Shown here: piece after piece, positions 6,098-36,492 of the stretch
Layout of the letters: each line of letters begins with the position of its first letter
Position numbering within the stretch: the first letter of the stretch is position 1
The notes under the pieces: model-generated
Databases searched by the model: none
The model's input: only the letters and a program-made list of their open reading frames with translations
What the model was told of the DNA's origin: nothing
Program-made: the position numbers and the translations under genes
NCBI GenBank assembly: GCA_902798825.1
Contig: CADBYI010000008.1
Location: 207 to 64,206, forward strand
Origin: an uncultured Eubacteriales bacterium
Lineage (GTDB): Bacteria > Bacillota > Clostridia > Christensenellales > CAG-138
Length of the DNA stretch: 64,000 nt
Direction: 5' to 3'

Positions 6098-7654
6098 TTA
6101 CTTGCTGGGCACCTTTCCTTTGACCTTCACCAGGGAGGTGCGGATATATCCCTTGCTCTTGCCATAGGAGACATAATACCAGCTCTCCCCATCCTTGCCC
6201 TTCGTCTTGTAGTGGACGGAGACCTTGGTGCCGTCGGACAGCTCCTTGAGGCACTTGGATTCCTTGTCGGCCTCCTTGCGCAGGGCAGCGATGGACTTGG
6301 TGGTCACCGTGCCCTCCAGGCTCTTGCCGTCTCCCTCCACTGCGTCTTCCGCCACGGGGGTGGCCTTGGGCTTGCCCTGGGTGATGTAGTTGGACTTTAT
6401 GTAGCCGTAATGGCCGTTGCATTTCAGAAACCACCAGCCGTCCTGCAGCTCATAGAGGGTGGCGGTGCTGTTCTCGGCGACCTTCTTGCCCACGGTCTTA
6501 TAGGTGGTGCCGGGGCCGGCGCGCATGTTCACCTTGTCCGCGTTCACATAGCCCTTTTTGGCGTTCTTCTTCTGGGCGGTGGTGGGAGAGGTATAGACGA
6601 TGGTGGTGGGCGCCGGGGTTGCCATGTCCGCAGGGGTAGCGGCCACGATATCCCCCCCTTCCGTGTACCCGCCATCACCGTCGCCGGGATCGTCAGGATC
6701 GGCGGGGGTGCTCTCGGTCACGGCGAAGCGATAGACGCCCCGCTGCTCCATAAGGGGCGACAGCTCCGCACCGGTGCTGGAAAGGGGCGTGGCGCTGACC
6801 TTGAAGGACAGCTCGCTGGGATTCTCCGGAAAGCCGGTGAAAGGCACCGTCACATAGCGGCGCATGCCCGGGGCCACCACGGACTCCGCGGTGGTGTTCA
6901 CGGGGGCATTGTTCACCGTTACGTCGGACCAGGCAAAGCTCAAAAACCGATCGGTCTTGTTCTCCAGATAGCAATTGACGGCCAGCTCGCCCTGTTCGTT
7001 CAGACCCGCGCCCAGGACGATCAGGGTGCCGAAGCCGTTGTCAAAGAAGGTCTGCTCCGTGGTGCTCCGCTGACGGATGGGATAGACCACGTTTCCCTTG
7101 CTCTGGCCCGTGGGATAGAAGCTGAAGGCCCCGTCCACCACGTCCCCCTGGCCCATGGGCACGGAATCATCGTAGATGAGGGGATAGAGGATCAGCTCAT
7201 CCACCGAGGACACCCCGGCGGAGCGCAGCACGTCGGCGGGGATCAGTATCTCCCCCAGCATGGTCTGGCCGGCAGGCACCCTGACCTCATAGCCGCCGTC
7301 CTGCATATACCCGTTCACCGACAGATAGTTCAGCGACACCACAAAGTCCCGAACGTTGGACTTGTTGGTGGAGGTGAGCTTCAACGTGAGGCCCATGAGG
7401 GGGTCGAAGGTCTCCTCCTGCAGGATAAAGGAGAACAGGGTGCTCTCGGGAATGGTCTCCTGGCCCACCCGGCAGGTCCTGTCGCCCAGGGCCGTCAACG
7501 GGGCCATGGTCGCCTGGGATTGGCTTTCTGGCACATCCGTGGCGTCGGGCAGCTTCAAAACGGAAGGGTTGTTCTGTCCGCAGCCCACCAGGGACGTCAT
7601 CAGCAGCGCCGCCGAAAGCAGCAGCAGCCCGATCCGCGTTTTCTTTCCTTTCAT
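6098..7654 (-). CDS. lipoprotein with C-terminal tandem SH3b-like domains
   Basis: Lipobox signal peptide (LLLLSAALLMTSLVGCGQ). The C-terminal region has two SH3b-like segments (GYVNADKVNMRAGPGTTYKTVGK... and KVSVHYKTKGKDGESWYYVSYGKSKGYI). Confidence 0.7.
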   Translation of the reverse strand: MKGKKTRIGLLLLSAALLMTSLVGCGQNNPSVLKLPDATDVPESQSQATMAPLTALGDRTCRVGQETIPESTLFSFILQEETFDPLMGLTLKLTSTNKSNVRDFVVSLNYLSVNGYMQDGGYEVRVPAGQTMLGEILIPADVLRSAGVSSVDELILYPLIYDDSVPMGQGDVVDGAFSFYPTGQSKGNVVYPIRQRSTTEQTFFDNGFGTLIVLGAGLNEQGELAVNCYLENKTDRFLSFAWSDVTVNNAPVNTTAESVVAPGMRRYVTVPFTGFPENPSELSFKVSATPLSSTGAELSPLMEQRGVYRFAVTESTPADPDDPGDGDGGYTEGGDIVAATPADMATPAPTTIVYTSPTTAQKKNAKKGYVNADKVNMRAGPGTTYKTVGKKVAENSTATLYELQDGWWFLKCNGHYGYIKSNYITQGKPKATPVAEDAVEGDGKSLEGTVTTKSIAALRKEADKESKCLKELSDGTKVSVHYKTKGKDGESWYYVSYGKSKGYIRTSLVKVKGKVPSK

Positions 7655-7839
7655 ATGTATTACCTCCCAACGGCGGGGACAAAGGCCCGCGCCTGTCTAT
7701 ACTCGAAATCTCTACAGATATGATATATCACATCTGCCCCAGGATGTCAAATCTGTGCCAGTTTTTCCCTTTTTCCCATTATATCCCGGTGCAAATCCGT
7801 CTTTCCTGTAAAACCTCTGTTAACCTTTTCCCCCTTTCG

Positions 7840-7868
7840 TTGACAAGGTCTGATGCCCGGGATATAGT
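7840..7868 (+). promoter_or_regulatory. putative sigma-70 promoter for the lipoprotein/efflux cluster
   Basis: TTGACA (7840-7845), 17-nt spacer, TATAGT (7863-7868). This leaves a leader of about 100 nt before the ATG at 7973. Confidence 0.5.
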
Positions 7869-7972
7869 GAGGGCAAATTTGAGGCATATCGGTTAGGCTA
7901 TGCGCAAGGGCCGTTCCCGGCGCAGGCCTGCTTACGGCACTGCCGAAGGAAGAGGGAAAGGAGACCACGTCC

Positions 7973-8950
7973 ATGAAAAAGGCGATCGTCCGTATGGGAA
8001 GCCTGCTCCTTCTGCTGCCCCTGCTCACGGGCTGCGGCAAGGGACAGGCGAAAGCTGCGCAGACAGCCGCCCCGGCAGAAGCGCCTGTGATCACGGCGGC
8101 CCCCGCCCCCGTTCCCGTGGCCGATGCGCCAGCCCCGGCAGACTCACAGGCGGAGCCGGAAGCCGAGCGCATATTGGGCTACTGCACCAGCATCGTGGAC
8201 GTCCTCCCCTATTCTGCGGACCTGGACGGTGACGGCGCGGCGGAGGTGGTGAATCTGGTGACCTATGTGCCCGAGGACGAATACCCCCGCTGGGCGGTGA
8301 CGGTGACGAAGGACAGCGTGGAAACCCAGTTCGAAACCGACATCCCCTATGACACGGCCCACGACCTGTGGGTGGGAGATCTGGATGAGGACGGGGCCTA
8401 CGAGATCTTCTTCCACGGGGACATGGCCTCCGACGACTATCTGATCTATGGTTTTCGCAGCGATTTAGGCAGCCTGTTCTTTGCCCCCGACGAGCGGGCC
8501 GTCCGCTGGGAGGACCCCCGGGAAAGCACCGTCTTCGCGGGGCGCATCGAGGGCTTCGAGGACGGACACATCGTCATCGAAGGCGCAGTGGATATGCTGG
8601 GCACCCACTGGGGCGTCCGAAACTTCTCCCTGGGGGAGGACGGCATCATCGGCCCCGCCAGCACCGTATGGACCTTCGACGATGAGATCGAAGCGGAGCG
8701 GCCCCTGACCGTGGCGAAGGAGCTGACCGCGTATGCCGCCGCCGTCCGCAAGGACCCTGGCCAGGCCTTCACCCTGAAACCGGGAGAGAAGATCTATCCC
8801 CTGGCCAGCGACGGCTGCGAACGGATGTGGTTCGAAACGGAGCAGGGCAAGGGCGGCGTGCTGCTGCTCACCCCGGATGAGGCGGATACCTGGCGCATCG
8901 ATGGCGCGCCGGAGGCGTCGTTTTTCGAGAATTTACCCTATTCAGGTTAG
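7973..8950 (+). CDS. lipoprotein, function unknown (Asp-rich DxDxDG-type motifs)
   Basis: Lipobox signal (LLLLLPLLTGCGKG). Motifs DLDGDGAAE and GDLDEDGAYE resemble calcium-binding/FG-GAP-like loops. Confidence 0.6.
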   Translation: MKKAIVRMGSLLLLLPLLTGCGKGQAKAAQTAAPAEAPVITAAPAPVPVADAPAPADSQAEPEAERILGYCTSIVDVLPYSADLDGDGAAEVVNLVTYVPEDEYPRWAVTVTKDSVETQFETDIPYDTAHDLWVGDLDEDGAYEIFFHGDMASDDYLIYGFRSDLGSLFFAPDERAVRWEDPRESTVFAGRIEGFEDGHIVIEGAVDMLGTHWGVRNFSLGEDGIIGPASTVWTFDDEIEAERPLTVAKELTAYAAAVRKDPGQAFTLKPGEKIYPLASDGCERMWFETEQGKGGVLLLTPDEADTWRIDGAPEASFFENLPYSG

Positions 8951-34970: not shown

Positions 34971-35150
34971 CTATTTGTTGCCCTTGGCCCGATTGTGGGT
35001 TTTGCAGAGCATCTGGCAGTTGGCGGCGTCCGTGGCCCCGCCATGGCTCCATGCCGTCACATGGTCGGCGTCCATCTCGTTCATGCGGTAGATGCGCTTG
35101 GCGTTGTTGTCGTGGCCGATGGCGCAGAAGGGGCAGTTGGAAACGCCCTT
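34971..35150 (-). pseudogene. HNH endonuclease domain remnant (C-terminal ~58 codons)
   Basis: Minus-strand frame reads KGVSNCPFCAIGHDNNAKRIYRMNEMDADHVTAWSHGGATDAANCQMLCKTHNRAKGNK-stop. This is a classic CxxC...DH...N...C..HN HNH motif, cut off upstream by an in-frame stop at 35151-35153. It is too short to appear in the ORF track. Confidence 0.75.
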
Positions 35151-35200
35151 CTACATGCTCCTGGCCCATACTATTTACTAAGGGTAGCTGTACGCCCGAT

Positions 35201-36244
35201 TCAAGCAAACGGTTCTCTTTCAGGGGCGATATATATGATATCGCTGATGCCGCGCCCACCCGGACTGGACGGCACATTATACACTTCACCCTGCCAAACC
35301 ATGACGGCGGAATTCCCGCCGTCCAGGTTGAAAGCCGCGGCAAAGCCCATGTTCTCCGCAAATTTGGCCAGATCGCTGATGTCTAGCCCTCGTGAGTTGT
35401 GAATCTGCCGGCCATCGATAAGGCAGAGAGCATAGTGGCCTGGCTCATAGTATCCCAAGATACAGCGTGGATTGTTCTGATTGGCGCTTACTCCCAGATA
35501 CAGCCCTTTCTTTGCCTTCCCCGATTCGTCTAGCAGGCCTGGTCCGAAGTTGAACACCTGCCAAATGTCCTGAGAAAGAAGCGCTTCCACTGTATACTCA
35601 TCCTCCGTGAAGGTTCTCATAGATCCATCCCGATACAGAACGCAGATATTTCGTTTGGGCTTTTGCTGAAAGTAGGTAATACCATTTCGTATCACTATGC
35701 CATTGTTCACAGCGCAGTAATCGCCGGAGACCGCCAAAATGGCGCCATACTTTTGTGCCATATCTCCCACCTTAGCAGTTAAGGGAGAGGTAAAGTCCGG
35801 GCCAGCTGAACCTGTTTTGAGCAGCGTCACGTCCTGCAAATAGATATCCGCCACATGATAATCAATACTGCCCTTGTAGCTGGTTTTATCGGAAGCATGA
35901 TATACCCGAATGCACACATGTTCGCTGCTGTATTCATTATCCGTGATTCTTTCTCCCGTATACGAGAAGCCATCGAAGCGACCGCCCAGTAATCCCTCTG
36001 GCGTTGGTTCTATCGTAGGTTCCGGCGTGGGCGTGGGCTGATATGTACACGTTGGTCCTGGCGTAAGGGCCGAAATATATATGGTTTGCAGTGGTGCTGT
36101 GATGGCAGAGGGGGTGGTAGGCTGCAAAATCAGAGTAGCTGTCGCTTGTGCCTCTCGCGAAGCGGGAGAATATCGATCAAAGCAAGCCCAAAGCCATAGC
36201 AGAGAGCACAGGAGAAAGCCAAGCAACCATATATTTTTGCGCAT
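35201..36244 (-). CDS. phosphodiester glycosidase family lipoprotein (DUF2233/NAGPA-like)
   Basis: Start at MRKNIWLLGFLLCSLLWLWAC (lipobox). The C-terminal AAFNLDGGNSAVMVWQGEVYN motif is typical of the family. G+C is visibly lower than in the flanks. Confidence 0.75.
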   Translation of the reverse strand: MRKNIWLLGFLLCSLLWLWACFDRYSPASREAQATATLILQPTTPSAITAPLQTIYISALTPGPTCTYQPTPTPEPTIEPTPEGLLGGRFDGFSYTGERITDNEYSSEHVCIRVYHASDKTSYKGSIDYHVADIYLQDVTLLKTGSAGPDFTSPLTAKVGDMAQKYGAILAVSGDYCAVNNGIVIRNGITYFQQKPKRNICVLYRDGSMRTFTEDEYTVEALLSQDIWQVFNFGPGLLDESGKAKKGLYLGVSANQNNPRCILGYYEPGHYALCLIDGRQIHNSRGLDISDLAKFAENMGFAAAFNLDGGNSAVMVWQGEVYNVPSSPGGRGISDIIYIAPEREPFA

Positions 36245-36330
36245 GTATCGACTGCCTCCTCTGGTTTGTTTGGTATCCAGCCGCCGATTCATTCTTCCCA
36301 CCTCTTCTTTTGCTTTTCAGTCGACCACTG

Positions 36331-36355
36331 TCAATAAGCACACCTTTGATAACCG
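36331..36355. repeat. left arm of imperfect inverted repeat (IR-L)
   Basis: tcaataagcacacctttgataaccg versus the reverse complement of 36461-36486, tcataaggtacaccttttgataaacg. About 22 matched positions, 2-3 single-base indels, and a shared core ACACCTTT(T)GATAA. Confidence 0.6.
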
Positions 36356-36368
36356 TATCTGATTATTT

Positions 36369-36397
36369 ATTATACAAAGAAAAAGCATTTTAATCAA
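36369..36397 (-). promoter_or_regulatory. near-consensus sigma-70 promoter facing the glycosidase gene, located between IR-L and IR-R
   Basis: On the minus strand: TTGATT, 17-nt spacer (aaaatgctttttctttg), TATAAT. Confidence 0.6.
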
Positions 36398-36460
36398 CGC
36401 CAAAATGCCTTGATAAGCAAGCTAACAGGACTTCTGTTATCCTTAATGCCCAGAAAACGA

Positions 36461-36486
36461 CGTTTATCAAAAGGTGTACCTTATGA
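36461..36486. repeat. right arm of imperfect inverted repeat (IR-R)
   Basis: See IR-L. It lies 7 nt beyond the recombinase stop codon. Confidence 0.6.
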
Positions 36487-36492
36487 CAGCCG

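Follow-up and report, generated by a model that had tools for sequence, protein, structure and literature searches.

A compact invertible promoter, bounded by two recombination sites and adjoining the gene of a small serine recombinase, very probably lies in the 64,000-nucleotide stretch of DNA analyzed here (the window), which comes from an uncultured Eubacteriales bacterium. In the window it stands in the orientation that would drive a surface lipoprotein gene, which we call ON. A preliminary description of the locus had proposed such a promoter, with ON/OFF control of the lipoprotein gene, and this proposal is supported by an assembled relative of the locus in which the interior of the segment matches the reverse complement of ours at 132 of 134 positions. 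The locus looks functional and belongs to a large family of such compact promoter invertons with serine recombinases, found in gut Clostridia and apparently not described before.

The locus and its two crossover sites

A phage-head-like operon borders the locus on one side and two ABC-transporter genes on the other. Its recombinase gene and the gene for a NAGPA-type lipoprotein are co-directional, and the 248-bp spacer between them contains both of the inverted repeats that had been noticed beside the recombinase. The core common to the repeats is present as ACACCTTTGATAA at 36340-36352 and as TTATCAAAAGGTGT at 36464-36477. The repeats are best read as candidate Hin-like recombination sites, each with two 12-bp half-sites around a 2-bp center (12-2-12). 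Read in this way, the sites themselves stand, and they reach further out (36328-36352 and 36464-36489) than the extents first given for them (36331-36355 and 36461-36486). The features of the locus are collected in Table 1.

Table 1. Features of the recombinase-lipoprotein locus, with positions in the window
Feature	Position	Strand	Details or basis
HNH remnant, last ~59 codons of a GmrSD-type gene	34971-35155	minus	Translation identical to the C-terminus of the GmrSD protein of contig L147
Strain-variable block (segment, site 2 and NAGPA gene), 1311 bp, 49% G+C	35156-36466		blastn against L147
NAGPA phosphodiester glycosidase lipoprotein gene (P0002), 347 aa	35201-36244	minus	Pfam NAGPA PF09992, 1e-21
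Putative site 2 (IR-L), gene-proximal, 25 bp	36328-36352		CTGTCAATAAGC-AC-ACCTTTGATAA; central AC at 36340-36341
Invertible segment with both inner half-sites, 134 bp, ON	36342-36475		Matches the reverse complement of the L144 interval
Predicted sigma-70-type promoter	36369-36397	minus	-35 TTGATT at 36397-36392, 17-nt spacer, -10 TATAAT at 36374-36369
Putative site 1 (IR-R of the preliminary description), 26 bp	36464-36489		TTATCAAAAGGT-GT-ACCTTATGACAG; central GT at 36476-36477
Small serine recombinase gene (P0001), 201 aa	36493-37098	minus	Pfam Resolvase PF00239, 4.4e-29

Several measurements in the preliminary description change with this reading. The gap between the sites is 111 bp and not about 105 bp (134 bp separate the central dinucleotides), and site 1 begins 3 nt past the recombinase stop codon instead of 7 nt. 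The two to three indels counted between the repeats reduce to a single one, a run of three T residues in the inner half-site of site 2 (T3) where site 1 has four (T4), which leaves site 2 shorter by 1 nt. The outer half of site 2 has two mismatches to the family consensus described below. The arms had also been judged to lack dyad symmetry; site 1 is in fact symmetric at 9 of 12 positions.

The site centers, GT and AC, are reverse complements of each other and lie 136 bp apart, and sites 1 and 2 are therefore in inverted orientation. Cleavage would presumably fall exactly at these central dinucleotides. Against the family consensus YTRTCAAAARGT-NN-ACYTTTTGAYAR, site 1 scores 23 of 24. In a Hamming-distance scan of the 2.28-Mb genome (61% G+C) no other site reached 21, and in shuffled genomes 0-1 matches reached even 19. 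No further copy of the crossover site was found elsewhere in the 2.28 Mb.

The recombinase

In an alignment with gamma-delta resolvase, the catalytic residues R8 and S10 and the DRLGR motif of P0001 fall in register. The best match among proteins in the PDB is Sin (2r0q, 1.7e-27), followed by the gamma-delta and Tn3 resolvases (about 1e-19) and by Gin (8e-16, or roughly 1e-15), and the protein falls below the NCBIfam model of the Mpi family, NF009949 (43.5 bits against a cut-off of 272). The exact protein occurs on at least 12 contigs from other samples with the open reading frame intact and identical. Among related organisms the gene is patchily distributed: 12 of the 41 genomes from the order have it, as do 3 of 16 other genomes from the genus. 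P0001 is most likely the invertase of the adjacent segment, and we presume it to be the catalyst of the inversions described below. Its gene lies outside the invertible segment.

The same genome encodes a second serine recombinase, 52% identical to P0001, outside the window (contig C12, 87128-87700). A pair of dyad sites lies 60 nt downstream of it (L002, 2133-2421; about 87760-88050 of contig C12), reading TCAAAAAAAAGT-AG-ACTTTGCTGACC and GGTAAAAAAAGT-CT-GCTTTTTTTACC, with reverse-complementary centers 265 bp apart and an extended -10 element, TGCTATAAT, just within the first site. We regard this pair as a probable second inverton whose site has diverged.

Promoter, segment and leader

The promoter-like sequence TTGATT-17-TATAAT reported earlier as facing the lipoprotein gene is found on the minus strand, at 36397..36369. 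It is one of five promoter-like matches in 3.5 kb, where 1.9 are expected, and it is a prediction from sequence. The predicted transcription start lies near 36362. As the -10 element ends about 16 nt before site 2, transcripts would exit through site 2 into the lipoprotein gene, giving a NAGPA 5' untranslated region of about 118 nt in the ON state, with site 2 transcribed within the leader. A search of the spacer and 5' untranslated region gave no Rfam match at E ≤ 1, and the 118-nt leader is predicted to fold no better than its shuffled versions (z = +0.96).

A TTGATAA motif inside the segment (36410-36416) was considered as a third binding site for the recombinase and was rejected, as it is not conserved in an oriented alignment of the relatives.

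A promoter-like sequence pointing inward, TTGATA-16-TATTAT (10 of 12 matches), is present on the plus strand at 36346-36373. It overlaps the main -10 element on the opposite strand, and its -35 element is supplied by the inner half-site of site 2. In many of the relatives the half-site likewise contains TTGACA or TTGATA, 16-17 nt from a -10 element. Because the half-site doubles as the -35 element of this promoter-like sequence, binding of the recombinase could interfere with transcription.

The presumed target gene

The P0002 protein has a signal peptide, an LWAC lipobox-like motif, a Pro/Thr-rich linker and the NAGPA domain, and a ribosome-binding site, AGAGGAGG, precedes its ATG. An alternative in-frame ATG is located at 36292, 16 codons upstream, and is preceded by AGAGGTGGG. 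A start there would extend the N-terminus of the lipoprotein by 16 residues, MNRRLDTKQTRGGSRY; the gene callers took the ATG at 36244.

Evidence for inversion

The same segment is flipped in contig L144/L148 (ENA ERZ27280676), whose recombinase is 98% identical, whose cargo is again the NAGPA gene and whose flanks are 98-99% identical (1319 of 1329 positions in the right flank). Its interior agrees with the reverse complement of ours at 132 of 134 positions, against 39 of 134 in the same orientation, and blastn of our locus against this contig reported a reversed block. The junctions are exactly those expected from exchange at the site centers; for our own cassette the flipped junctions would read CATAAGGTACACCTTTGATAACCGTATC and its partner. 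In L144 it is site 1 that has the short T3 inner half-site and site 2 that has the long one. At least one inversion must therefore postdate the deletion of the T. The segment between the inverted repeats thus occurs in both orientations relative to fixed flanks, and its predicted promoter faces the adjacent gene in only one of them, which is the arrangement that defines an inverton.

Both orientations also occur in each of three further sets of contigs from different samples, the members of a set encoding one and the same related recombinase and differing only in how the segment is oriented. L108 of the P0060 set is flipped against nine others; the P0038 set has L122 and 16 similar places ON and six others OFF; and the P0028 set has six ON and two OFF. 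In all three sets the inner half-sites trade places, and neither the outer half-sites nor the central dinucleotides change. An assembly error is an implausible source of the flipped forms, because the 26-bp repeats are far shorter than reads or k-mers and the inversions are replicated across samples.

In the species of the window itself the picture is more uniform. All 13 assemblies with the exact window recombinase are ON, and the OFF form of this cassette was seen once, in the strain with the 98% identical recombinase. A search for the exact ON and OFF junctions in JGI metagenome contigs gave no match to either, in a collection from which the species is absent. Contig look-ups with two other recombinases of the family, from L012 and L004, each matched their own MAG only.

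Some assemblies break in this region. The conspecific or near-conspecific contigs L141 and L146/L149 extend precisely to the last base that the ON and OFF forms share, scaffold L086 has a 10-N gap inside site 1, and contig L092 stops at the start of site 1. These breaks (L141, L146, L086, L092) hint at mixtures of orientations within samples, or else at mixed strains, because branches in the assembly graph are expected where both forms or two strains are present.

A family of related loci in Clostridia

The recombinase has 7,997 or more relatives at E ≤ 1e-40. When each species was represented by a single genome, more than 580 were found, and we examined the best 80 (65-79% identity), almost all of which are from gut or rumen Clostridia. 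The preliminary description had held that a lack of conservation of the repeats in homologous cassettes would count against inversion. Of these 80 loci, 41 have a pair of 26-bp sites downstream of the recombinase gene, a count of the loci with a recognizable site pair under the thresholds used, which left the central bases free and allowed a spacing of 90-260 bp. In most of the relatives the first site lies 0-27 nt past the recombinase stop codon. The half-sites have the consensus YTRTCAAAARGT given above, with a mean dyad symmetry of 10.1 of 12 positions.

The site centers are reverse-complementary in all 41 pairs (GT/AC in 30, AC/GT in eight, and GC/GC, AA/TT and TT/AA in one each). A 2-bp staggered cut followed by rejoining at the center would require just such co-variation. 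The spacing of the sites falls into classes of 117, 127, 137, 147, 157, 167 and 188 bp, with a best period of 10.15 bp and a resultant length R of 0.80, from a Rayleigh statistic that ignores the relatedness of the loci. Since the loci are interrelated, the nominal p-value for the spacing overstates the evidence. Steps of about 10 bp imply that the sites must occupy a fixed face of the helix, as would be needed for synapsis across a very small loop.

The promoter, with its 17-nt spacer, is positionally fixed in most of the related segments, its -10 element ending 16-17 nt before the exit site, and a co-directional gene starts soon after site 2 in nearly all loci. In the reference genomes it points toward the cargo gene in five (the window included) and toward the recombinase in 29, as called across species by a position-restricted promoter criterion, alignment of whole interiors being ambiguous at their degree of divergence.

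The cargo genes are diverse and include BspA-type LRR, VWA/pilin and RCC1-repeat proteins, GtrII, LicD, MBOAT and AMP-binding enzymes, as well as BrxA, helicase/ResIII, HEPN, endonuclease and NAGPA proteins. Cargo of this kind, concerned with the surface, the cell wall and phage defence, is typical of phase-variable loci.

In other species, the loci L103-L112 and L113-L120 have the module of recombinase and switch beside a MobA/MobL relaxase or a tyrosine integrase gene, which suggests that the module often travels on mobilizable or integrative elements. A recombinase 70% identical to P0001 also occurs under an "Escherichia coli ... cleanbin" label (L042, CAVGWF010000046.1), and this contig is probably mis-binned.

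We found no description of this recombinase family or of its site sequence in the searchable literature, and the crossover-site motif is absent from those portions of the supplements to PMC11892184 that were available. Members of the family may nevertheless be present as unnamed entries in large inverton catalogues.

Comparison with known inversion systems

The closest parallel in the geometry of the sites is with Hin, which works the flagellar phase switch of Salmonella, and the other members of the Din family (Gin, Cin and Pin), in which a small serine recombinase likewise acts on two inverted 26-bp 12-2-12 sites. The sites of the Hin family have 12-bp half-sites around a 2-bp asymmetric core, with exchange at the central bases (PMC3241671, Table 3; PMC3798978). 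Our half-site ACCTTTTGATAA matches the hixL half GGTTTTTGATAA at 9 of 12 bases, with TTTTGATAA in common (Table 3 of PMC3241671). As at hix, an internal promoter drives a gene just outside the segment. The differences are that the Hin and Din segments are about 1 kb or more in length, against about 110-135 bp here; that the recombinase gene here is outside the segment; that their cores are AA or GA, in contrast to AC/GT; and that the spacing here follows steps of about 10 bp. Thus the locus shares with the Din family the inverted 26-bp sites with an asymmetric 2-bp core, but its protein does not group with Hin and Gin apart from the resolvases, being closer to Sin (1.7e-27) than to Gin (8e-16).

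Fis is a proteobacterial protein and is not known from the Firmicutes. A Fis-bound enhancer is unlikely here, and the segment has no apparent room for one.

Mpi of Bacteroides fragilis, another gut anaerobe, is likewise a serine recombinase that flips short promoter segments ahead of genes for surface structures; its capsular-polysaccharide promoter segments are roughly 200 bp. Mpi acts globally on many distant promoters, whereas here one recombinase adjoins a single switch with a different repeat sequence. We considered and rejected an Mpi-like global regulon: the site is unique in the genome, with no dispersed promoter invertons sharing a common repeat in the 2.28 Mb, and the protein scores 43.5 bits against the Mpi cut-off of 272.

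Clostridia themselves are also known to invert short promoter or regulatory segments that precede surface and signalling genes. The RecV switches of Clostridioides difficile (flagellar, cwpV, cmr and pdcB) depend on tyrosine recombinases and have unrelated repeats (PMC7446863), and the "group 139" invertons of Clostridia have been linked to tyrosine recombinases as well (PMC11892184). Both have repeats unrelated to ours and differ in their enzyme from the serine recombinase, with its 12-2-12 sites, described here.

Of the proteins with a solved structure, Sin is the closest relative of P0001 (2r0q). Sin and beta, small serine recombinases of Firmicutes found on plasmids of Gram-positive bacteria, work through a bent-DNA architecture and not through Fis. 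Sin resolves directly repeated res sites that include an accessory site; here, in contrast, there are two equivalent sites in inverted orientation, and inversion is observed.

Proposed mechanism

Dimers of the 201-aa recombinase would bind the two inverted 26-bp sites just downstream of their own gene and would synapse into a tetramer across the loop of about 136 bp. Both sites would then be cut with a 2-nt stagger at the central AC/GT, half of the complex would rotate by 180 degrees, and the DNA would be rejoined with the 134-bp interior flipped. With a loop so small and helically phased, a bending protein such as HU may be required. In the ON orientation the outward promoter would transcribe through site 2 into the NAGPA lipoprotein gene. 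In the OFF orientation the lipoprotein gene would be left without its promoter, which would instead direct antisense transcription of the 3' end of the recombinase gene. Some expression in the OFF state could occur by read-through, because the recombinase gene is co-directional with the cargo gene. We infer both the effect of flipping on NAGPA transcription and the rate of switching in the species. The inner half-site that is 1 nt short could slow or bias the reaction.

Alternative explanations

The uniformity of the 13 conspecific assemblies could mean that the switch is decaying or locked, having inverted in the past but now doing so rarely enough, as a result of the 1-nt deletion, that the promoter is effectively fixed ON and constitutive. 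The state of site 2, 25 bp in length with T3 in place of T4 and an outer half that departs twice from the consensus, would fit such a history. We nevertheless consider it improbable. The flipped L144 carries the same T3 half-site at its site 1 and so records at least one inversion after the deletion, the recombinase is intact and identical on at least 12 contigs, and assemblies display only the majority orientation in a sample. The N-gap of L086 and the end of L092 at site 1 fit mixed orientations as well, as weak evidence. The main residual doubt about the inverton is a quantitative one, that it may switch rarely in its own species.

Two readings without inversion fare much worse. The affinity of the protein for Sin and the gamma-delta and Tn3 resolvases, together with the relaxase and integrase genes that adjoin related copies, might point to sub-sites of a res type or to an operator of the recombinase, serving to resolve cointegrates or multimers, or in the autoregulation of a mobile element. 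Such a role is very hard to reconcile with inversion of the interval, directly observed in four cassettes. The two sites have equal 12-2-12 geometry, their centers co-vary in 41 of 41 loci, for which accessory sub-sites would give no reason, and they lie downstream and not upstream of the recombinase gene. The preliminary description had also kept open an operator or an RNA structure. Site 2 lies within the 5' untranslated region when the promoter is ON, and its counterparts in relatives are near-perfect palindromes with the potential to fold into a 5' hairpin, so that the repeat might be a riboswitch-like RNA element or a transcription-factor operator that never recombines. We rejected the RNA element on the Rfam search (no match at E ≤ 1) and on the leader, which is not unusually structured (z = +0.96), and the internal TTGATAA is not conserved; the flipped contigs would also go unexplained, which makes this reading about as implausible as the preceding one. 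A compact serine-recombinase inverton accounts for the locus far better.

Strain-variable cargo and possible cassette exchange

The strain-variable block of Table 1 is poorer in G+C than its flanks (60-64%). Contig L147 has flanks that are 98.5% identical to ours and, at 6635-8947, carries a different invertible segment with an EcoRI-like methylase gene and a GmrSD/HNH gene in place of the NAGPA gene. Homology between the two loci is lost within site 1, following ...ACCTTTTGA, and returns for the final 185 nt of the GmrSD gene, the remnant of which is annotated as a 61-aa HNH open reading frame in conspecific contigs. In a more distant relative that shares the upstream genes, the cargo is an AMP-binding enzyme.

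The presence at one locus of either NAGPA or methylase and GmrSD, the breakpoint within site 1 and the diversity of cargo in the family lead us to raise, as a speculative and on balance unlikely idea, that the recombinase and site 1 form a fixed "docking" module at which whole cassettes, each made up of the invertible segment, site 2 and a cargo gene, are swapped by site-specific recombination. The support for exchange at site 1 is one clean breakpoint. If the idea is correct, the docking module would be an integron-like route by which acquired surface and defence genes are placed under phase-variable control in gut Clostridia.

Significance

Relatives of this recombinase are now annotated merely as "recombinase family protein", and the results presented here give them a probable role and a site consensus. 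With this consensus, phase-variable genes of gut Clostridia can be predicted straight from sequence. The family also represents a natural inversion system, presumably without a Fis enhancer, whose loops span about 117-188 bp in increments of 10 bp. It is tractable for studying the selectivity of inversion in a minimal loop and could become a very small switch for engineering. For the organisms themselves, the nature of the cargo (adhesins, cell-wall decoration, and BREX, restriction and HEPN defence) suggests bet-hedging of both the cell surface and phage defence in uncultured gut Firmicutes.
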